Shown here: positions 1,852 to 36,247 of the stretch, one piece after another
Position numbering within the stretch: position 1 is the stretch's first letter
Layout: every line of letters starts with the position of its first letter
Virus record (IMG/VR): IMGVR_UViG_3300044837_000078
Coordinates: 2,637-66,636 of that record
Length of the DNA: 64,000 nt
DNA from: a virus
Strand: one strand, 5' to 3'
Notes under the pieces: model-generated
Told to the model about the DNA's origin: nothing
Databases searched by the model: none
What the model saw: the letters and a program-made list of their open reading frames with translations, nothing else
Made by a program: the position numbers and the translations under genes

Positions 1852-2865
1852 TCAAGCAACCACGGTCGCGAAAAACGTTCCGCATTCCGCAGCTACAAGC
1901 TTTTGCGTGAACGCCATCTGCATTTCGATCCGGTCGGATTCCAGATTCTCCATGCGGAAGCGCTTGACGCGCTGGCCGGCATTGCCCGCGCCGAGGAATC
2001 CCGTCCAGGAGAACGTGTAACCGCCGGATGGCTGCATCAGACTCGGCGCCGGAGCTGCGTACACCAGCAACGCCGCCTTGCCGCCGATGAAGGCGTTGGA
2101 CTCAAGTCCGTTGAACGTGCCGCTTTCATGGCCGGTGTTCTGCACAGCGTCCATGACCAGGAGGCTGTCGATTTCCATCAAGGCCGCAACCGCCTGCTTG
2201 GTGACGATCGCCGGTGCGCCCGGGGAAGCGCCGTATTTGATGCGGTCGGTGATCGACCCGTGATCCTCGAGCTTCGACCAGACCTGTCGGCCAAGCACGA
2301 GCTTGTTGGGACGGAAACCGCCGGACGCCAGATGGATCTTGTCCGCGTTGGAACGCACGTCGGTGATCGGCGTGGCGTTCGGGTCGTTCCATTGCAACAC
2401 GGTGTTGCCCGCGGGCGAGGCCGAAACGCCGGTGACGTCCACACCAGAGCCGGTCCAGATGCCGGTGGTGAAGTAGTTCGACGCCCACTGCACTTCGCGG
2501 CTGATCAGCGCCTGATTGGACAGGAACATGGTGGCGTCGCGGTCCATGTCCAGCGGCGAATCCGCGTTGGCGCGGATCTGGTCTTCGACGTCCTTGTGCA
2601 GCGCCCAAACCGGGGCGTAGTACGACGGCGTATTGTCGATCCGGTAGCTAGCGCCGGCGGATTCCGTTCCTGGCGCGCGCTGGCGCATGGTGTCGCGGTT
2701 AAAGTCGCCCCGCGAATAGGTGTAATAACGGTCAGACTGCTTGGCGACCGGGACGTTCGGGAAGACCTGATCCGCCACGAAAGCGGAGGCATTCTGCATG
2801 AACGCGATCGAGATGTTGGTGAGCGGGGTGTTTACGTGGACATCCCCTGCTGTCGGGTTGCTCAT
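1852..2865 (-). CDS. Major capsid protein
   Basis: 337 aa with HVNTPLTNISIAF...ADQVFPNVPV, typical of lambda-E-like capsids; AAGGA RBS; position after the decoration gene. Confidence 0.85.
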   Translation of the reverse strand: MSNPTAGDVHVNTPLTNISIAFMQNASAFVADQVFPNVPVAKQSDRYYTYSRGDFNRDTMRQRAPGTESAGASYRIDNTPSYYAPVWALHKDVEDQIRANADSPLDMDRDATMFLSNQALISREVQWASNYFTTGIWTGSGVDVTGVSASPAGNTVLQWNDPNATPITDVRSNADKIHLASGGFRPNKLVLGRQVWSKLEDHGSITDRIKYGASPGAPAIVTKQAVAALMEIDSLLVMDAVQNTGHESGTFNGLESNAFIGGKAALLVYAAPAPSLMQPSGGYTFSWTGFLGAGNAGQRVKRFRMENLESDRIEMQMAFTQKLVAAECGTFFATVVA

Positions 2866-2907
2866 TTGACTTATCCTTTAAGTCGGATCGAATAGAAAAT
2901 GCCCAAC

Positions 2908-2929
2908 AAAAAGCCGCCCGAAGGCGGCT
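2908..2929 (-). terminator. Intrinsic terminator-like hairpin between the decoration and capsid genes
   Basis: Minus strand AGCCGCC-TTCG-GGCGGCT followed by a T run. Confidence 0.6.
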
Positions 2930-2959
2930 GTCAGGGCGGAGGGTGCAGCGCTAGTCGGG

Positions 2960-3331
2960 TTACGACAGGCCGCGGGGCTGGATCAGCATCGCGAAGATGT
3001 CACCGCTTGAGGCCGAAGCCAGAGCGATGCCCATGAAATTATTGTCGGCCGACGAGGCGTTGACCGCAGCACCGTTGGCATCGGCAACCAGCGCCTGGCC
3101 TGCGGTGATCGAACCGCCGGCCACGACCTTGCTAATGCCGCTGGGACGGATGCGAGCGGCGCGGGTAGCCGCCGCAGGGGCATCCTGCAGAACGCCTGCG
3201 GAAAGCTGGCCGCGGGTCGAAACGGCTGCGTTGCCCGACGAGTCGACGGTGATGAAGCGGTACTGCTTGGTGGAAAGATCGGCTGCCGCAGGCAGCGAGA
3301 AGTCGAGATTATTACCGTGATCGAACGACAT
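2960..3331 (-). CDS. Capsid decoration/cement protein (DUF2190-like)
   Basis: 123 aa, Ala/Gly-rich, AAADLS..QYRF, AGGSITAG..L.ADANG, GIAL..A..GD; upstream of the capsid gene. Confidence 0.8.
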   Translation of the reverse strand: MSFDHGNNLDFSLPAAADLSTKQYRFITVDSSGNAAVSTRGQLSAGVLQDAPAAATRAARIRPSGISKVVAGGSITAGQALVADANGAAVNASSADNNFMGIALASASSGDIFAMLIQPRGLS

Positions 3332-25055: not shown

Positions 25056-26499
25056 ATGCAGCCTCGCCTCAAAACACAACCACAACTTCCCACACCGCTG
25101 GTGACCAGCCAGCTCGCTCTGTCCGCGCTCGTTGTCGTGCTCGGCGACGCGCTCGATGAACTGAAACAGCCCGGCGCCGCCTTCGACCGCAGCGACATCG
25201 TCGGGCGGATTGAGGACGTACTGGCCTCGGCAGAGGCGGTGCTGCAGTGACACTCACCGTCCTGAATTTACTCGACGAATGCACCGGCGAGATCAACCGC
25301 GCCGTGCTGCGCTCGATGGTCCACCGCCGCGCTATGGCCGACTACGGCGCGTTGACGCCGCGCTCGCTCCGGCAGGCCCAGCGCTACTACGCCAGCGTCA
25401 TTGCACAGCGGAAGGCCGGCTGGCGCCAGCGCCACGGGCTACCAGTCAAGATCACCATAACGACACCCTTTGGCCGTCCGGCCGAAGGCGTCCGCCGCTC
25501 GGCGTTTTGAGGTCCGTGATGAAAAGCGACGAGGATATCGCCAAGACGTTCCTGCTTCGCGGCATTCAGCAATGGGGGCAGTCACCCGCCGATCGCGAAC
25601 AAGCCACACGCGAATACGTCACCGCTGCCGGGTTTGTTTTCGGTTCGGATGATGGAAACGAATGGCTCAGGCACATCCTCCAGAACCTCAAGCGAGGGAA
25701 GCTTGAGACCGAGATCGAACAGTTGGTAGCAGCTCTTGCTAGCCGCGCATCCATCCTCAAAGCGGCGAGGGCGCAATGATGCTCGCTCAACATCCGTTCA
25801 TCCTCGGCATTCTGACCGGCGGCGGATTACTCGGCGGCGCGCTCGGCATCATCGGATGGTGCCTCGGTCACGACGCCGCAATGCGCAAGGTTGTGGGCTG
25901 GATGCGGCCGAAGGTCGACGAGGCGCACGGCGACGTGCCGGAGCTGCCGCCGATTCGTGAGCGGCGATTTATTCCGACAACGCCGGGACGCTGGACATGA
26001 ACGCGCTCAATCTCAAAGACCGGCTGAACGAAATTATCGCCTCGCTTTGCCGCGATGCCGACATGCCAAACGGCGGCCTATGTGAGGCGTCGCGCGTCCA
26101 GTCACGGAATCTTGTCGCCGCGCTTCGGGATGAGGTGACCGGCAAGCGCCCGAAATCAATCGATCCTTCATGGGGTGACCGATGAGTGCCCTCAGCCGCT
26201 TCATGTCCACCGCGCGCGGCATCCTCGACGAGAAGCCCGCACCGAAAGCGCAACCGCCGTTCTTCGTCCGCACGACGTGGCTATTCGCCGAACTGGAGGA
26301 GCTGGCGACGCCCGACGAGATCGAGACCTTCATGGCGATCAAGATAGCGTGCCTTCAATGCAACGTCGCAAAGATCGCGCCTCTAATCGAGGTAATCGCA
26401 ATCAATAGCGAAAGACTGACGGACGGCCGCCAGCGCCACGAGCGGAAACAGCTCTGCGCCTGGATCAAGGAACAGATCGCGCGGGATGGCTTGAAATGA
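25056..26499 (+). CDS. Six small early hypothetical genes (25056-25250, 25247-25510, 25519-25779, 25776-26000, 25997-26185, 26182-26499)
   Basis: Mostly translationally coupled ORFs downstream of the early promoter. Confidence 0.6.
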
Positions 26500-27428
26500 C
26501 CGTCGAAAGAATTCCGATCGACCCCGTTAAGATGCGCCCGCAATGGCTCGACCTGCGCACTAAGTTCATCACGGCCTCCGACGTGCCGGCCGTCTGCGGC
26601 GAGGGCCTGTTCGGCTCGGCCGCAAAAGTATGGGCCGAGAAAAAGGGCCTGCTATCGCCGCAGGAAATGAACGACGCGATGTTCCGCGGCATCATCGGCG
26701 AGCCCGCGGTGATGCGCGCCATCCAGTGGCACTTTCCCGATTGGGAAATCCGGCCGACCGGCGTGTTTCTGTGCGATCGCGAGACCCGTCTCGGCGCAAC
26801 CCCGGATGGCGCGGCCGTCATTCCCGGCCGCGATGGCATCGGAATCATCCAATGCAAGACCGTCTCACGGCCTTGGTATGAGCAGAAATGGCTCGACGAC
26901 GATGATAAGCCCGTGGTGCCGTTGGCCTATGAGCTACAGACCCTCACCGAGGCCATGTTGGCCGACGCGCCATGGGCGATGATCGCGGTCCTGATCGTCG
27001 ACACGTTCAAGTGGGAACTAAAAGTTTTCCCGGTCGAGCGCAACCCCGGCGCCGAGGCCAAGATCAGGCAGTGCGTTGCCGAGTTCTGCCGCGACTACCT
27101 CGACGCCAACGTGCAGCCGCCGATCGATCCGGTGCGCGACGAGGAGTTGGTGAAGCGTCTTTTCCCGCGCGACAACGGTGCCGAGATCGACCTTTCCGGT
27201 GACAACTCTTTGCCCGGCATCGTTGCCGATTTCGAGGCCGCCAAAGCCATCAAGAAACGGGCCGAGACCGAGGAGAAGATCGCGGCCACCGCCATCAAAG
27301 CAAAGCTCGGCGAGCACAGCACCGCGCGCCTCGCCGACGGCCGACGGATCAGCCATCGGCTGCAGCAACGGGCTGGTTACGTTGTCGCTGATACTGAATT
27401 CCGAGTTCTAAGACTGTTGAAAGGTTGA
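26496..27428 (+). CDS. YqaJ/lambda-exonuclease-family recombination nuclease
   Basis: WL..R...ITASD, G...EP, LGATPDG, IQCKT, Y.LQ. Confidence 0.9.
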   Translation: MTVERIPIDPVKMRPQWLDLRTKFITASDVPAVCGEGLFGSAAKVWAEKKGLLSPQEMNDAMFRGIIGEPAVMRAIQWHFPDWEIRPTGVFLCDRETRLGATPDGAAVIPGRDGIGIIQCKTVSRPWYEQKWLDDDDKPVVPLAYELQTLTEAMLADAPWAMIAVLIVDTFKWELKVFPVERNPGAEAKIRQCVAEFCRDYLDANVQPPIDPVRDEELVKRLFPRDNGAEIDLSGDNSLPGIVADFEAAKAIKKRAETEEKIAATAIKAKLGEHSTARLADGRRISHRLQQRAGYVVADTEFRVLRLLKG

Positions 27429-28192: not shown

Positions 28193-28221
28193 TCGCGGAC
28201 GGCCGACACAAGGAGGCTACC

Positions 28222-29337
28222 ATGTCTGAAGAAGCCGCAACTGCCGAAGTCGTTCACCTGCCGGCGACACGCCACTTCGTATCGACGACGGATGTTTTCT
28301 CCGATCCCGCCTCATTCGAACATGCCCAGCGCGTGGCTAAAGTGTTTGCCTCGTCAAACCTGGTGCCACCGCACCTCAAGGGTCAGGTTGCCGATTGTCT
28401 GATCGCCTATCAGATCGCGCGCCGGCTCAATGAGGAACCGCTGACAGTTTTCCAAAACATCTATGTCGTCTCCGGCCGGCCGGGCTGGAAAACCGAATAT
28501 GTGATCGCGCGCGCCAACAAAGCCGGCGTGTTCAAAAGCCGGATCACATGGAAGCCGACAGGCGAGGGCGACAACCTCGCGGTGACGGCCAGCGCGGTGC
28601 TCGCCGATTCCGGCGAAGTCATCTCGGTTACCTGCGACATGAAGATGGCGCGCGCTGAGCACTGGACGAAGAACGCCAAATACACCTCGATGCCGGAGCA
28701 CATGCTGCGCTGGCGATCGGCCGCCATGCTGATCAGGCTCTACGCGCCGGAAGTCATGCTCGGCATGCCGGTGATCGAAGAACTGGAAACCATGGAGCCC
28801 GCGCCGATGCGCGACATCAGCCCGGCGATGCGCCGCTCGCTTGATGATTTTGCCAACGGCATCAACTCGGCCAGCGCTGCCGAGAGTGAAGTATCCGAAG
28901 ATCAAACCAATTCCACCGCGTCGTCGTCAGCAACCGGAGAACATTCATCTGCCGGCGCGGCGGAGGCAGGGGAGGCCGATCCAGCACAGGATCCTGACAA
29001 GGCCGGCCCTGCCAACAATCAACAGAGTTCGCCGCAACCGTCCTCGCCGCCCGCTGGGCCGGAAGCGTCGGGCCAGGCCGCTGCCAAGTCCAATCCCTCC
29101 AAGGAAGATAAGGCAGCGGCCAAGGCCGGAGATAAACCACCTTCAACGGAGGCGGAATACGTCGAGGCCACCACGATCTGGATTGCCAATCTGCTTGATG
29201 CGGACGCCGGCGAGAAGCGCTGGAAATCTGAAAAGACGCTTCGCAACAAAGCCAACGTCGGCGCCGATGCGCGCGAGTCCCTGCAAGAGAAGCTGGCGGC
29301 CAAGTGCTCCGAGATCAGGGACGCGGATCGGTCATGA
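28222..29337 (+). CDS. RecT/Redbeta-like ssDNA annealing protein
   Basis: AAGGAGG RBS; S.LVP....G...DC.IA, QNIYVV.GRP, W....KY..MP..ML.WR, YAPEV.LG. Confidence 0.8.
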   Translation: MSEEAATAEVVHLPATRHFVSTTDVFSDPASFEHAQRVAKVFASSNLVPPHLKGQVADCLIAYQIARRLNEEPLTVFQNIYVVSGRPGWKTEYVIARANKAGVFKSRITWKPTGEGDNLAVTASAVLADSGEVISVTCDMKMARAEHWTKNAKYTSMPEHMLRWRSAAMLIRLYAPEVMLGMPVIEELETMEPAPMRDISPAMRRSLDDFANGINSASAAESEVSEDQTNSTASSSATGEHSSAGAAEAGEADPAQDPDKAGPANNQQSSPQPSSPPAGPEASGQAAAKSNPSKEDKAAAKAGDKPPSTEAEYVEATTIWIANLLDADAGEKRWKSEKTLRNKANVGADARESLQEKLAAKCSEIRDADRS

Positions 29338-29771
29338 GCGCCGAGCGCAACGAAGTCATGTGGTGCGTCGATTGTGGCGCTCGCTTCACCCAAGAAGAGA
29401 TCAAGGGCTGGGGCTGTCCGAAGTGCGGCAGTCGTGGCGTTCCATGCGGCTGCGACAAAGATACGAGTGTAGAGATCAACTGGCACGAGCTGCGCATTCT
29501 TGTCATCTGGGCCGAACAATGGGCCCGAAAAGCGAGCGGTGACAGTTCGAAAACGATGCCTGATACAGTTCATGCGATTGCGAGGCGCCTGCAGAGCCAG
29601 CATCCGGATTTCGGTCACCTTACACTGTCCGGCGAAATCGCCTCGCTGCCAGCCGATCTTGCGAAGGCTGGTATTGAGATCGGTTCCGTTGAAACCAGCA
29701 TTCCGAAGCCCGGCTTGCTGCCCGTCAATGGTCCCGGCGCCGTGGGACATTCTGCGCGGGAGCGGTCATGA
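29334..29771 (+). CDS. Zinc-ribbon hypothetical protein
   Basis: CVDC...CPKC. Confidence 0.6.
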   Translation: MSAERNEVMWCVDCGARFTQEEIKGWGCPKCGSRGVPCGCDKDTSVEINWHELRILVIWAEQWARKASGDSSKTMPDTVHAIARRLQSQHPDFGHLTLSGEIASLPADLAKAGIEIGSVETSIPKPGLLPVNGPGAVGHSARERS

Positions 29772-30139
29772 CAACCCACGCCGACCGCCTAAAGGCCTCC
29801 CACCGCGGCGCGCAACTGGCGGCACCGGCGAGCGCGTCGCGGCTCGCCTCGCTCGAATACCACAAGCTGCGATACGAGATGCTCGACGACGGAACGGTGC
29901 TGGTTGAAGGCGAGTTCGTTTTCAATCTCGCGGCCAGCCATTGGCGATCGAACAAGCACAGCGACTGCCATGGCTATACTGTCGTTGGCTTGGCTGGAGC
30001 GATCAAACAACGAACGCCTGAGAAACCCGCCGCGGGCAGGGACAACATGCAGGTCGAACTGGAGACCACTGAATCACATCAGCACGTCGAGTCCGCGGCG
30101 GGCCCCAATACGGTTCTGCCGATGAGCAAGTGGCCATGA
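29768..30139 (+). CDS. Hypothetical protein upstream of the TIGR-like locus
   Basis: ATGA-coupled on both sides. Confidence 0.5.
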   Translation: MTTHADRLKASHRGAQLAAPASASRLASLEYHKLRYEMLDDGTVLVEGEFVFNLAASHWRSNKHSDCHGYTVVGLAGAIKQRTPEKPAAGRDNMQVELETTESHQHVESAAGPNTVLPMSKWP

Positions 30140-30864
30140 GCAAGGAACCAACTGCCATCGGCGATGCTCTCGCGGCGCTTGGTCTCAATCGCTCTGAATA
30201 TGAGTTTGCCGCCGCTATATCGAAACTGTGGAATAGTGGGGTTACAGCCGAACGCGGGCGCGTAATTTACGAAACGCTTGCCGAAAGAATGCCGGGGAAG
30301 GGCCAGGAAGATTTTGCCAGCGATGGCCAGAAGTTGGATGCCAAGCCCCGGCAACCAATGCCGGACATCAGCCAGAGCAACCGTGCCAGCGATGGCCATC
30401 GATCAGATGCTGACAGTCCGGCGCCTATTGAAGATGATGGGGCCAATGAGCACAAGCCTCTAGGCCACGGGCCGGATGCCCCGTCATCTTCGCCCGCTCG
30501 CGGCGGGGAGGGCCAGAGTGCGCATGCTCAAGACCGCCGAATCGGTGTTGCTCTTCCCGCCGCGACACCCGCGCGAGAGCCATCTCCGACCTACCTGAAA
30601 GCCGCCGGCGACTCTCGCAGAGAAACCGCCCGCAGCATTCTCTACAGGTACAAGACAAGCACCGGCGCATGGTGGGGAGATGTCCACCCCTACGAAGTCA
30701 GCGGTATGACGCGCGACAGCATTCGCGGCCTGGCCATCATGTCAACTTTAGGTCCTCTCAACTCCAAGCAAATGAACATGACGTTCGATCAGTTGCTCAC
30801 ACCAGAGCAAGCGCAAATCGCTATGGAAAAGGCAGACAAGGAACTCGCGAATGTCGCACAGTGA
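30136..30864 (+). CDS. Tas-associated hypothetical protein whose central low-complexity region is encoded by the guide array
   Basis: Coupled to both neighbours; protein-like N- and C-termini flank array units 1-4. Confidence 0.6.
   Translation: MSKEPTAIGDALAALGLNRSEYEFAAAISKLWNSGVTAERGRVIYETLAERMPGKGQEDFASDGQKLDAKPRQPMPDISQSNRASDGHRSDADSPAPIEDDGANEHKPLGHGPDAPSSSPARGGEGQSAHAQDRRIGVALPAATPAREPSPTYLKAAGDSRRETARSILYRYKTSTGAWWGDVHPYEVSGMTRDSIRGLAIMSTLGPLNSKQMNMTFDQLLTPEQAQIAMEKADKELANVAQ
30290..30564 (+). ncRNA. TIGR-like stem-loop guide RNA array, units 1-4
   Basis: Four units about 70 nt apart: closing stem-GCCA-9 nt-(T/A)GC loop GCC(A/G)-9 nt-TGC-closing stem. Spacer pairs: GGAAGATTT/GAAGTTGGA, GAGCAACCG/TCGATCAGA, ATGAGCACA/CGGGCCGGA, GAGTGCGCA/AATCGGTGT. 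Confidence 0.85.
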
Positions 30865-31777
30865 AATCATCGATCTAATCCGCGCGAAGCATCGAGAGCG
30901 TTGCTTCGCTATGGATCAGCGCAAGCGGCTTGATCTCGCGCTCGGGGCGTTTTTGCGCCTCATGATGGGCTGGCGCAAAGACCTCCCCGAAGCTGAGCGG
31001 AAGGCGATCGCAGCGGAGGTGTCCGGCATGATGGACGATGGCGGCGGTCCCTGGGCGGAAGTCATCGCGGCCTCACGCATAGGCAGCGCGCCATTCGAAA
31101 AAATCGAGGGCGACGCCAAGAAGGAAATGGCGCGACTCGCCAAGCAACTGCCAGCCTGGGAAACGTTCGGCACTAAACACCGCGGTTTCGGCGAGGTCTC
31201 GCTTGCTGTGATTATTGCCGAAGCTGGCGACTTGTCGAACTATGCGACGCATTCGAAGCTGTGGCGTCGCATGGGCATGGCTCCTTATTCCAGGGAGGGG
31301 GTTACGAAGTCAGGCAAGCAGTGGCGAGTAGAAGGCGGACTCAGTGACAAGGATTGGACCGCTTTCGGTTACAGCCCAAAGCGGCGAAGTGCGATGTATG
31401 TGATCGAGGATTCGCTCTACAGGCAGCAAGGGTTCTACCGCGAAGTTTACCTGAAGCGGAAGGAGTATCTTCGAAGCCGCGCCGCGCGGAACGGACTTGC
31501 GGTCGCGCCTTCCGCCAAGATTCCAGCGAAGAGCCGTGATGAGTTCGTATCGCTCGGCCACATCGATCAAGACGCAAAACGATACATGGGAAAGCGCCTT
31601 CTGCGCGATTTGTGGAAGGCGTGGCGGCGGGCCATCACCGCGGTGGCTGAAAAGTCCGGATCGCGATTGCCCGCCGACGAAATCTCGCCGAAGGGCGAGG
31701 GGGAGGCCACCTGCGGTGGGCCTAAACAGGCCAGAGAAGCATTGCCTCTCCGTCAATTCATGGATGCCGCCGAGTGA
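30851..31777 (+). CDS. TasA-like Nop/IS110-derived RNA-binding protein with no nuclease domain
   Basis: GFGEVSLAVIIAEAGDLSNYATHSKLWRRMGMAP (IS110 Transposase_20/Nop-like), YSPKRRS, GHIDQDAKRYMGKRLLRDLWKAWR. Coiled-coil N-terminus; no DEDD RuvC or HNH motif; flanked by the arrays. Confidence 0.8.
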   Translation: MSHSEIIDLIRAKHRERCFAMDQRKRLDLALGAFLRLMMGWRKDLPEAERKAIAAEVSGMMDDGGGPWAEVIAASRIGSAPFEKIEGDAKKEMARLAKQLPAWETFGTKHRGFGEVSLAVIIAEAGDLSNYATHSKLWRRMGMAPYSREGVTKSGKQWRVEGGLSDKDWTAFGYSPKRRSAMYVIEDSLYRQQGFYREVYLKRKEYLRSRAARNGLAVAPSAKIPAKSRDEFVSLGHIDQDAKRYMGKRLLRDLWKAWRRAITAVAEKSGSRLPADEISPKGEGEATCGGPKQAREALPLRQFMDAAE

Positions 31778-31891
31778 GGCGGCGGTGTCGGCCAGTCTGC
31801 ATGCGCCGAAAGGCCAAGGCGTGGTTGCCGACACCTTCAATTCGCTGGCCAGTCCATCGTTGTCGAAAAACCATATCGGCACTGCCAGCGA
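31625..31891 (+). ncRNA. TIGR-like stem-loop guide RNA array, units 5-8
   Basis: Same architecture. Spacer pairs: TCACCGCGG/GATCGCGAT, CCTGCGGTG/GAGAAGCAT, GTCTGCATG/AGGCGTGGT, GTCCATCGT/TATCGGCAC. Followed by the hairpin CCTCTCCGG-GAAA-CCGGGGAGG (31892-913). Confidence 0.85.
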
Positions 31892-31940
31892 CCTCTCCGG
31901 GAAACCGGGGAGGACAAACAAGGAAGGAAGCGGTGACGCG

Positions 31941-32780
31941 ATGACCAGAGACGAGGCTTACAACATTGTTTGCAGGGCGTTCGATACGACCGACCAAAAT
32001 GGCCACTTCCGGACCAACCCGCGGATGCTGGTGGAAACTTTCGTTTCGCTCGGAATACTTAAACTCGATGAGCCGAAGAATTTGAAAGATCGCCTTCGAT
32101 GCGTCCTTGAGCCGCCGGGATATTTTCGATCGCCGGATGATTTTATGCGGGCGCTTGATGCGGTGCATCTCAAGATCGTGGAGAAATAACATGCCGCTGT
32201 CCCGCCGCTCGCTTCTCACCGCGCTTGCGTCTCTCACCGGCTTTGCGGTCGCGGGGAGGGCGAGCACTGCGCCAGTGGTTGAGCCCGTGATCGAGCGGGA
32301 GCTCGCTGGGCTACCTGTCTTTGCAGCGGCTCGTGGCGAGACCGTCAATATCACTGTCCGCGCCGGTGTCAGTGCCGCCGCCTTTAGAAGATCGCGGGCG
32401 CAGATCATGAAGGAATTGCAGCGCCGGAAAATAGATGACGACAATGCGGATGGAATGGAGCCAGCATGATCATGCCCGCCGCCCGCCGCTATTCCACCAG
32501 CCGCGCCGCTTCGCTGCAGCCGGAGATCGTGGCCTCGCTCTCCGATGACGAGTGGCGCAACATCACGGCGATCTGCGCAAAGCTCCATCGCTCCAGCGAC
32601 GACGCCGAAGTGGCGGCCGAGATCGCGGCCGATGCCGCCGCATACGGCAAGCTGCTCGCGGCCGGCGATGACCGCGGCTGTCTTGAGATCGAGCAGAAGT
32701 ACGGCCTGACAGGTCTGCCGCCGCAACAGGTCTCCGAGCAGCTGGCGGAAATGTCGAAGCCGGAAGGTGGTGGGGCGTGA
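31941..32780 (+). CDS. Three hypothetical genes (31941-32189, 32191-32469, 32466-32780)
   Basis: Coupled ORFs; the second begins with a Tat-like SRRSLL signal. Confidence 0.55.
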
Positions 32781-34507
32781 AGCAACCTATCCCGGATGCT
32801 GCGCTTGATGATCGACTCGGCTTTGTCGGCACCGCCGGCAGTGGCAAGAGCTACAACGCGATGGGCCGCGTCGAGCGGCTGCTGGAGCGCAAGGCCCGCG
32901 TCGCTATCGTTGACCCGCTTGGTGTGTTTTGGGGCTTGCGCCTCTACGCGGACGGCAAGACGAAGTCCGGTTTCGATATCCCGATCTTCGGCGGCCCGCA
33001 TGGCGATCTGCCGCTGACCGAACATTCCGGCGCCTTGATCGGCGAGACGGCGGCCGGCATGGCAGAAAGCTGCATCATCGATTTGAGCGAGATAGGCACC
33101 AAGGCCGGCGAGCGACGGTTCATGCTGCATTTCCTTACCGCGCTTTATCGCAAGGCCAGCGGTGAGCCGCTGCATCTCGTCATCGACGAGGCAGATATGT
33201 TTGCGCCGCAAAAACTCACAGACAAGGATGGCGAGGCGGCAAAGCTGCTCGGCATGATGGAGACGGTTGTTCGCCGTGGTCGCATCAAAGGATTTATCCC
33301 GTGGCTGCTTACTCAGCGTCCGGCCGTCATCGCGAAGGATGTCCTGAGCCAGGTCGACGGTCTTGTCGCGTTCAAACTGACCAGTTCGCAGGATCGCAAC
33401 GCGCTCGGCGCATGGGTCGAGGGCACGGCCGATAATAATGACTGGCCTGAGATGAAGGCCAAGCTGCCATCCATGGAGCGCGGGCAGGGCGTCGTCTGGA
33501 TTCCAGGTCGCGGCATTCTTGAGACTGTCAGCTTTCCGGAAAAGATCACGTTCGATTCATCTCGCACCCCGAAGCGTGGCGAGAAGAAATCGACCGCGGC
33601 TTTGACGCCGCTAGACCTCGGCAAGCTAAAGGACAGGCTTGCCGCAGTTGATGCCGAGACCAAGGCCAACGATCCGAAGGCGCTCAAGGCCGAGATCGCC
33701 GCTTTACGCAAAGAAGTGACCGCAAAAGCCCTGATTGCGCAAAACGCGGCTCCGGACCCGAGGGCCATTCGGGACGCGGAGGTTCGCGGACTGGAGGAAG
33801 GCTTCGTGGCCGCCATGCGCTTGCAAGCGAAGGCAATCGAGGCAATATCCATTCCGCTCAATTCCGCTGCCGGTGAACTGTCCGCGTGGAACAAGCGTCT
33901 TTCCGAAAGTGTGCCTGTTCGTCCATCGGGCTCGCCACCTTCGCAGGCATTCAACCTTTCCCCTGCGAAGCTCACAGCCCCGGCGCGGGAGGCCGTTCGC
34001 GCGGCACCGCGCAAGCCAATGCCGGCGGCGAGCGGCAACGGCGCCTGGAATTCTCCGCAACGGCGCGTGCTGGACTCACTCGCATTCTGGCGCACCATCG
34101 GCCACGAAATGCCGAGCCGCGAACAGGTCGCGTCCGTTGCCGGTTATTCGCCGGGATCGGGCAACTTCAACAATCTGCTCGGCGGGTTAAGGGCACACGG
34201 CGCGATCGATTACCCGGCGACAGGCTCGGTTGCGCTCGCGATCGATCATGAGAGCAACATGGACGCGGACGACGCCCGCCGGATGCTCGACAAAATCCTG
34301 ACCGGGCCGCAGCAGAAAATCCTCGAAGCGATGCGCTCGCTCGGAAGTCACGCCTCGCGCGAACAGATCGCGGAGGCCAGCGGCTACAGCGCTGGCAGCG
34401 GCAATTTCAATAACCTGCTTGGGCAGCTTCGAACGCTTTGCGTGATCGACTATCCGCGCACGGGCGAGGCTCAGATTACAGATTGGGCGGGGCAGGTGCT
34501 GGGATGA
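32777..34507 (+). CDS. HerA/FtsK-like (DUF87) ATPase with a duplicated C-terminal winged-helix-like module
   Basis: Walker A GTAGSGKS, IVDPLG, Walker B LVIDEAD, RGR..G, TQRPA; two SREQ.A...GYS.GSGNFNNLLG.LR...IDYP repeats. Confidence 0.85.
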   Translation: MKQPIPDAALDDRLGFVGTAGSGKSYNAMGRVERLLERKARVAIVDPLGVFWGLRLYADGKTKSGFDIPIFGGPHGDLPLTEHSGALIGETAAGMAESCIIDLSEIGTKAGERRFMLHFLTALYRKASGEPLHLVIDEADMFAPQKLTDKDGEAAKLLGMMETVVRRGRIKGFIPWLLTQRPAVIAKDVLSQVDGLVAFKLTSSQDRNALGAWVEGTADNNDWPEMKAKLPSMERGQGVVWIPGRGILETVSFPEKITFDSSRTPKRGEKKSTAALTPLDLGKLKDRLAAVDAETKANDPKALKAEIAALRKEVTAKALIAQNAAPDPRAIRDAEVRGLEEGFVAAMRLQAKAIEAISIPLNSAAGELSAWNKRLSESVPVRPSGSPPSQAFNLSPAKLTAPAREAVRAAPRKPMPAASGNGAWNSPQRRVLDSLAFWRTIGHEMPSREQVASVAGYSPGSGNFNNLLGGLRAHGAIDYPATGSVALAIDHESNMDADDARRMLDKILTGPQQKILEAMRSLGSHASREQIAEASGYSAGSGNFNNLLGQLRTLCVIDYPRTGEAQITDWAGQVLG

Positions 34508-35617: not shown

Positions 35618-36247
35618 ATGCAGATCATCGAAGCCAAGCTTTCCGGTTTGAAGATCGACCCCGCCAACGTCCGGCAAACCGACAAGGCGCCTGACGAAGG
35701 ACTACTCGCCTCAATCCGCGCCAAGGGGATGCTCTCGCCACTCACGGTGAGGAAGAACGGTGGCGCCGGCTACTACGTCACCGACGGCGACAAGCGTCTC
35801 GCGGCGCTGCATATCCTGGCTCGCGACGGCGACTTCGACAAGACAAAGCCGATTCAGTGCGCGTTGAGCGATGATGATGCAGCGGCCGCCGCCGATACCA
35901 GCCTGACGCTGAACTTCATCCGCGAGGACATGCACCCGGTCGACGTCTCCGAGGCGTTCGCGCAGCTTGAGAAGGCTGCGGTCTCCGGCGAGCGCTGCCC
36001 GATCACCGGCACGAACGGATTGACGAGCAACCTGACCGGGGCTCTGGCCCGCGCCGGTCAAATCAGGATCGACGTCTATCCGCATAACTGGCGCGTCGTC
36101 ACGATCATGTGCGGCCCGCATGCCGGCAATGCAACCGCGCCGCCGAAGAACAAGGACTAGCGACCGTATCTCACCATCGAAAAGGGATCGGCGCCGAAAA
36201 AGCAATATACGCGCGACTACCTTCAGACGACCCGCGCCGGAAAGTAA
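35618..36247 (+). pseudogene. Truncated ParB-N fusion with an in-frame amber stop
   Basis: NVR.....L.ASI...G.L.PL.V, DG.KRL.AL, N..RE.MHPVD. The frame continues past the TAG at 36158-60 for 28 codons to a TAA. Confidence 0.55.

Follow-up and report, generated by a model that had tools for sequence, protein, structure and literature searches.

Can the middle of a protein-coding gene be, at the same time, an array of guide RNAs? This question is raised by a locus in a virus record (IMG/VR record IMGVR_UViG_3300044837_000078), of which positions 2,637 to 66,636 were analyzed; this whole stretch of 64,000 nucleotides (nt) with a GC content of 60% is called the window here, and all coordinates refer to it. 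On its + strand lies an open reading frame (ORF) of 242 amino acids (aa), with its ATG at 30136 and its stop codon at 30862-30864, that is defined by the ORF call, homologues, their alignment and an AlphaFold 2 (AF2) model. The interior of this host gene, as we call it, contains four hairpin-forming guide units (U1-U4) and its end runs into a gene of the Tas family. A first-pass annotation made from the letters alone had described the array as written inside a coding gene, where it would occupy a tolerant linker. Judged from the loci compared below, the same DNA is indeed a hairpin guide array as well as a translated linker, i.e., dual-coding, and many related phages and prophages share this arrangement. 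We assign a probability of about 0.78 to the reading that U1-U4 account for the entire linker between the two domains of a conserved gene beside tasA and that this DNA is read both as guides and as codons, the proposed steps of the mechanism being included in this estimate.

The units were detected with a core pattern consisting of box C (CCA), 9 nt, box D, a loop with a second box C at its end, a further 9 nt and TG; a stem was not required. In the window this pattern matches 29 times on the + strand and 10 times on the - strand. Ten of the + strand matches fall between 30303 and 31849, eight of them being non-overlapping units (U1-U8) with a span of 1.6 kb. All eight units possess a pair of 9-nt spacers and a closing stem of 7 to 15 bp that has a different sequence in each unit, and their boxes are CCA and TG save for single deviations in U3-U7 that are given with the respective units. 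The cores of U1-U4 begin at 30303, 30372, 30443 and 30513, all within the ORF 30136-30864. U1 (30290-30353, + strand) has its box C at 30303, a 15-nt loop and a closing stem of 8 bp, and U2 (30360-30422, +), its 69-nt tandem duplicate, is likewise closed by 8 bp. The stems of U3 (30429-30492, +; first box D is AG) and U4 (30498-30565, +; second box C is CCG) are longer with 14 and 15 bp, and they coincide with the inverted repeats I16 (14-15 bp) and I10 (15-16 bp), respectively. In the duplication that comprises U1 and U2 (30288-30425; 69 nt or 23 codons) the overall identity is 71%. No difference occurs at the 20 positions of loop and boxes (15/15 identical in the loop), the spacers agree at 5 of 18 positions, which is chance level, and the closing stems show paired changes on both arms by which complementarity is kept. 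Identical loops together with chance-level spacers and compensated stems are the behaviour of a guide array and not of a protein repeat. This pattern suggests that the array grows by in-frame duplication of units followed by fast spacer change.

Such a cluster is not produced by composition. The largest number of units within 2 kb was two in 60 shuffles of the window under a dinucleotide model versus the eight observed, and a closing stem of at least 7 bp is found in 8 of the 10 core matches inside the cluster versus 3 of 29 elsewhere in the window. Folding of the sense strand between 30286 and 30570 gives z = -3.9 and that of the second block (U5-U8) z = -3.7, with 0 of 200 shuffles being as stable in either case, and z is -0.9 for the antisense strand of the first block. 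Tandem Repeats Finder and a generic repeat finder detected only the duplication of U1 and U2; the array is invisible to repeat finders and is seen only via its motifs and stems. Rfam yielded a single sub-threshold match (GA-cis, 19.8 bits versus a threshold of 34.7 bits). A CUU processing motif, as reported for other stem-loop arrays, can be recognized by eye in some units (U3, U7), where it lies at the base of the stem, but inconsistently, and we make no claim from it.

The host gene that surrounds U1-U4 overlaps both of its neighbours: its ATG at 30136 overlaps the TGA stop of the upstream ORF, which ends at 30139, and its 3' end overlaps the ATG of the ORF 30851-31777 by 14 nt. Its frame is open through all four units, and across the four-unit stretch one of the remaining forward frames contains 1 stop and the other 4. 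The translation contains G-Q/H-x-x-x-A pseudo-repeats, and seven of the eight box C triplets are in the same codon phase. In the AlphaFold model a three-helix N-terminal domain (residues 1-51, 30136-30288, + strand; helices 7-14, 19-33 and 38-51) and a helical C-terminal domain (residues ~144-242, 30565-30861, + strand), which holds nearly all invariant columns of the close family, reach a predicted local distance difference test (pLDDT) score of 70-84. Residues 53-141, which correspond to the array, stay below 50 and are predicted to be disordered. Thus, the first-pass annotation was right in placing the units amid an ORF that overlaps both neighbours, in its account of the open frame, the peptide pseudo-repeats and the common frame of most CCA boxes, and, as far as predicted disorder tells, in assuming a tolerant linker.

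An open frame in the window alone is weak evidence, so the case rests on the comparison of loci. The set comprised the window itself, 64 viral loci and 30 from bacterial genomes, all collected by way of their Tas relatives, and two metagenome loci collected by way of the host ORF. These 97 loci gave 88 distinct ones after identical tas matches had been collapsed, and one near-duplicate (L002, of L001) was omitted from the counts of phase and spacing. Hidden Markov models (HMMs) of the N- and C-domain were iterated on the upstream ORFs and then run on all stop-to-stop segments in the three forward frames, a procedure without bias toward intact ORFs. Of the 88 loci, 41 carry the C-domain upstream of tas and 23 the N-domain, with HMM E-values across loci of 1e-33 to 1e-14 and 1e-25 to 1e-7, respectively. 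Wherever both were present (23/23) they lie in one stop-free frame, the linkers between them being 132-507 nt long with 0 to 5 detected units. Linkers without a detected unit show the same hairpin plan with variant boxes on inspection, with the exception of the locus L027; the detector demands TG as last box D and spacers of 9 nt, so units are undercounted, e.g., in the locus L067. Of the 77 units within the linkers, 67 have box C in the same codon phase, and in none does it occupy phase 0, which means that it never forms a codon of its own. Distances between consecutive units are divisible by 3 in 33 of 38 cases inside linkers versus 10 of 23 for arrays that are interrupted by stops in each of the three frames (Fisher p = 5e-4).

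The check suggested in the first-pass annotation, an alignment of homologues, shows conserved N- and C-domains and a middle that is variable in length but in frame. In all 41 homologous loci the frame runs from the array into the C-domain without a stop or a break. The suspicion that only the C-terminal part is made from an internal start was not borne out either, since in the window no in-frame ATG, GTG or TTG occurs between codon 75 (in the flank of U2) and codon 191 (beyond the best-conserved part of the C-domain). This means that the conserved first half of the C-domain can be made only by ribosomes that read through the units. From these comparisons we conclude that the frame through the array – open, stop-free and spaced in threes – is kept by selection, translation being the simplest reason.

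The association of the host gene with tas, also expected from the outset, is evident from the 41 loci mentioned above and from the distances between the two genes. Of 43 loci with a long upstream ORF, 27 have the stop codon of this ORF 0-16 nt downstream of the estimated tas start, these offsets being approximate as the tas starts were extrapolated from BLAST matches. Five bacterial genomes (3.2-7.2 Mb) each contain the C-domain once and tas once, 20-265 nt apart (5/5). Among 301 sampled genomes of the same order two have a strong C-domain match, both adjoining tas, and one has a distant tas without C-domain. Two weak C-domain-like matches in the same sample (E 2e-6 and 8e-4) come from genomes without tas and were set aside as distant or false. 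Most of the 88 loci share the layout with tandem units next to tas on the same strand. Elsewhere in this Tas family, other clades have an upstream array that either shares the reading frame of tas or is interrupted by stop codons in all frames. The embedding in a host gene is, as far as these sequences tell, the habit of one clade.

The neighbour of the host gene (30851-31777, + strand) encodes a protein of 308 aa that is predicted to be all-helical, with a coiled coil and a Nop-type domain and without a nuclease domain. It has 386 relatives at E <= 1e-3 among 3704 candidates, and a profile of 50 Tas homologues matched TasR (9mty_A, E 3e-13) among the sequences of the Protein Data Bank (PDB). 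Foldseek against the PDB placed only TasR (9mty) or TasH (9w02) chains on ranks 1-10 (E about 1e-5, template modelling (TM) score about 0.5), followed by the IS621 recombinase. The AlphaFold model of the protein (pLDDT 86.5) has long N-terminal helices and consists of helices only, save two strands of 3 residues. Its sole Pfam match is PF02371 with 20.9 bits, below the cut-off of 21.3 bits, and Pfam revealed neither HNH or RuvC nor any other nuclease family in it. The matches to TasR and TasH together with the lack of a nuclease domain make this protein TasA-like; by sequence and predicted structure it is a nuclease-less Tas protein.

The second block of units surrounds the 3' end of this gene. 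U5 (31625-31676, +; second box C is CCG) and U6 (31700-31751, +; first box D is GG) lie in the 3' tail of the tas ORF, which is predicted to be disordered, and fall within its last ~50 codons, U7 (31784-31835, +; first box D is CG) follows directly after the tas stop, and U8 (31842-31891, +) is located 5' of the next gene. Thus, the block U1-U4 ends 286 nt 5' of the tas start and U5-U8 reach 114 nt past the tas stop, all on the same strand. With this arrangement the locus displays all sequence-level features of a stem-loop TIGR-TasA system, for which spacers of 8-12 nt are typical, and it is most readily classified as such a system of a temperate-phage-like element.

Some observations on Tas proteins and tas tails may be added. 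The tail that holds U5-U6 (31625-31751) has a pLDDT of about 50 from residue 270, and L004 and L016 are examples of related loci in which the tas frame continues through 4-6 downstream units. Two bacterial genomes contain interrupted Tas matches (one TGA and one TAA inside the match in the genome that holds L068, and one TGA in the genome that holds L071); these may be broken copies or matches that run past the gene ends. The isolated Rhizobium phage RHph_X2_25 (L097, MW960032.1) encodes a distant Tas-like protein (28% identity; 2255-3310, annotated as hypothetical) beside a repressor protein C. The N-terminal extension of this coding sequence contains at least one stem-loop unit, its stem being 12 bp long, and the domains of the host gene are absent. 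Collections of phages and plasmids gave no DNA match to the locus; plasmids gave none at all and phages only this distant Rhizobium phage Tas.

How would one DNA segment serve both purposes? In the mechanism we propose, the operon transcript would be the precursor of the guide RNAs (pre-tigRNA). As an RNA, the hairpin of each unit would present two 9-nt spacers between box C and box D to a TasA dimer. As an mRNA, the same molecule would be read by ribosomes that start at 30136, pass the units as a disordered linker of variable length and then make the C-domain. Translation and guide maturation would compete on one molecule: removal of a unit would sever the message, leaving the N-domain on one piece and the C-domain with tas on the other, and the coupled translation of tas would presumably drop. 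In other words, translation of tas could depend on ribosomes that arrive through the array. The first-pass annotation had likewise envisaged a built-in feedback, and a host protein that may be a Tas partner or effector. TasA itself probably acts as an RNA-guided DNA binder or repressor, as do the TasA proteins examined by Xu et al. (2026, bioRxiv 10.64898/2026.09.09.750476), and the host protein would work with TasA, possibly in guide maturation or loading. A stricter version regards the host protein as a dedicated TIGR accessory factor (e.g., for maturation or loading) whose own mRNA is the pre-tigRNA, so that ribosome transit versus TasA-dependent excision sets the ratio of guide to accessory protein and, by way of the overlap between stop and start, also the TasA level. 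We put it forward tentatively and find it rather doubtful in this full form. If it were true, every guide in such arrays would have to be a stop-free, in-phase piece of protein, a constraint on their evolution without known parallel in CRISPR.

The main competitor to this mechanism accepts dual-coding DNA but assumes separate RNAs. Guides would derive from a promoter or promoters of their own or from a sub-population of transcripts, the protein would be made from intact transcripts, no feedback would exist, and the disordered linker would simply tolerate an array in a packed phage genome. According to the preprint of Xu et al. (2026) sequence alone cannot separate co-transcription from internal promoters for intragenic tigRNAs, and the occurrence of arrays outside any frame in many related loci suits such independence. 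A weak promoter-like match (9 of 12 positions) is even found inside the array at 30410-30438, but such matches are few (3 in the region versus 1.4 +/- 1.0 in shuffles), and neither a convincing promoter nor a terminator was found between the genes in this region. Overlaps at both gene ends and no terminator-like site in between fit one operon transcript. The constraints on phase and spacing would be expected with separate RNAs too and do not discriminate. On balance we consider separate RNAs unlikely.

A more radical objection is that the ORF is not translated through the array at all, its open frame being a by-product of GC-rich, motif-constrained DNA and its products small separate peptides or none. 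Here the observations that weigh against dual coding have to be faced, and several of them concern chance frames. In units outside such ORFs a given phase lacks stop codons in 50-76% of cases, so four open units in the window would be obtained by chance with a probability of roughly 0.3, about one in three. Incidental open frames do occur in DNA of 60% GC: in L001 the entire array can be read in a second forward frame without meeting a stop, and in the window the frame 31497-32189, which is not the tas frame, is open across U5-U8 into the next small gene. The GC content at third codon positions (GC3) is low in the N-domain (0.49 versus 0.67-0.78 in neighbouring genes). Furthermore, the loci share descent and 23/23 does not represent 23 independent trials; the linker lengths nearly all differ. 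An untranslated array is nevertheless hard to reconcile with two domains that are detected at the protein level across loci and stay in one frame in every case despite linkers of 132-507 nt, with the threefold spacing, and with a conserved half of the C-domain that has no start codon after the array. Short proteins with the C-domain (40-181 aa) are also rare, with 3 among 1259 candidates in a collection of 5.8 billion proteins; in two of the three the first residues resemble the linker, and one of these two evidently begins in the middle of a protein. We therefore judge this objection to be very improbable.

Marginally less probable still is the opposite proposal of a mere protein repeat, i.e., a low-complexity linker rich in G and Q/H whose RNA motifs are incidental or a decayed relic. 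The pseudo-repeats do exist in the peptide, and the search for spacer targets, another point that does not help dual coding, revealed no target beyond chance in the window. With both strand arrangements per spacer pair, gaps of 0-8 nt and up to 3 mismatches (288 arrangements) it found 24 sites, the best with 2 mismatches, which is about what composition predicts (uniform composition gives about 6 sites at <=3 and 0.4 at <=2 mismatches, and the expectation is higher in GC-rich DNA). What a protein repeat leaves unexplained are stems that differ per unit yet remain complementary, the same unit plan in another frame in the tas tail and outside genes (U5-U8), strand-specific folding, spacers at chance identity between identical loops in U1 and U2, and the presence of a Tas protein next door. 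Three observations of another kind complete the unfavourable side. Many related tas loci have upstream arrays that are stopped in all frames, so embedding is not required for function. At L027 (2255-2779; C-domain E about 1e-15) no unit is detectable before the C-domain and the region has the look of an ordinary helical protein; the host-gene family may thus exist without an embedded array. Finally, neither a catalytic domain nor a known fold was found in the host protein in the Pfam, PDB-sequence and fold searches.

These searches deserve a closer description, as they define what is known about the host-gene family. The whole host ORF has no Pfam or PHROG family. No Pfam family is common to more than one of 30 C-domain sequences. 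The C-domain profile reached only E >= 1 against PDB sequences, alignment of the host model by VIA-align with 48,161 chains gave a best Z of 4.8, which is the noise level for helical models, and the ESM Atlas contributed no feature match and only structures at query-normalised TM < 0.5. Apart from itself the host protein has five relatives with 42-52% identity and 221-267 aa, in whose alignment the N-terminus is moderately and the C-terminal 95 residues are strongly conserved and the middle varies in length. Two near-identical loci around the host ORF were found in metagenome contigs; homologues of the whole ORF were not confirmed in viral and genome contigs, and no fusion of host domains with Tas occurs among 120 listed Tas homologues.

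Bacterial transcripts that combine a base-pairing RNA with a coding function, like SgrS/SgrT and RNAIII/hld, are familiar, and there the two functions reside mostly in separate parts of the RNA. At the locus described here, by contrast, the same nucleotides would serve as codons and as guide scaffold or spacer, and they would do so as an array. Among TIGR systems the closest relatives are the stem-loop TIGR-TasA loci of Faure et al. (2025, PMC12045711), who describe, e.g., a TasA from the gut of Peromyscus leucopus with 13 stem-loop units in three sub-arrays. Shared features are a nuclease-less Tas, a variable palindromic stem per unit that replaces the edge repeat, and sub-arrays on both sides of tas on the same strand. 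In that account, however, arrays are placed relative to tas and intergenic regions, whereas here the upstream sub-array is the linker of a conserved gene; moreover, processing was demonstrated there, and here it is predicted. The same authors report tasParB-tasA operons with arrays of the dual-repeat type upstream of, downstream of or between the genes. These resemble our locus in having a conserved second gene in an operon with tasA, but their arrays are described as lying beside or between genes, not in a coding frame, and the host protein has no ParB match in Pfam.

Arrays within genes have been recognized as well. The preprint of Xu et al. (2026, bioRxiv 10.64898/2026.09.09.750476) reports tigRNAs inside tas coding sequences, where they occupy disordered regions and leave the frame intact, as in the TasA of Bifidobacterium longum. 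It suggests a tie between tigRNA maturation and translation, names “auxiliary factors” as a possibility, and finds the TasA proteins tested to be RNA-guided DNA binders or repressors. U5-U6, which lie in the unbroken tas ORF, are a clear instance of these intragenic tigRNAs. U1-U4 fall outside the definition as given there, since the host gene of that account is tas itself and here it is a separate gene (30136-30864) in a different frame with its own N- and C-domains. A conserved non-tas gene with an array as its linker was not found in full-text literature searches, though figures and supplements may show such loci.

If the dual-coding reading holds, the locus is a natural example of nucleotides that act at once as codons, spacers and guide scaffold in a gene that is not the effector. 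Stem-loop TIGR-Tas systems have been described only recently, and the host gene, which is conserved and closely coupled to tas, would be a concrete candidate for a second factor in the processing of their guides or in the link between tas and guide expression. The rules of frame, phase and three-base spacing are simple tests that can be applied to the catalogued tas loci, of which the preprint counts 20,096, and could reveal how many “upstream arrays” are coding. In annotation, genes of this kind resemble low-complexity hypothetical proteins. Cultured carriers would make the question of translation versus processing directly testable.

The surroundings of the locus finally place it within the viral genome. 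The array gene is preceded by a run of overlapping genes on the + strand that comprises a RecE/YqaJ-like exonuclease (26496-27428), a RecT-like protein (28219-29337), a small ORF two genes 5' of the host gene (29334-29771) with two CxxC pairs and a weak match to DUF7129 (19.7 bits, under the cut-off), and the upstream ORF of 123 aa (29768-30139) without family match. On the 3' side a terminase-like or HerA-like ATPase follows (32777-34507), so that the tas locus is flanked by a RecE/YqaJ-RecT recombination module and this ATPase. Further downstream the ORF 35618-36160 is ParB-like by eye only. The likely start of the small gene next to tas was placed near 31941, downstream of a purine-rich segment. 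With the ATG at about 31763, which overlaps the tas stop, as its start, U7-U8 would fall in an N-terminal extension of this gene.

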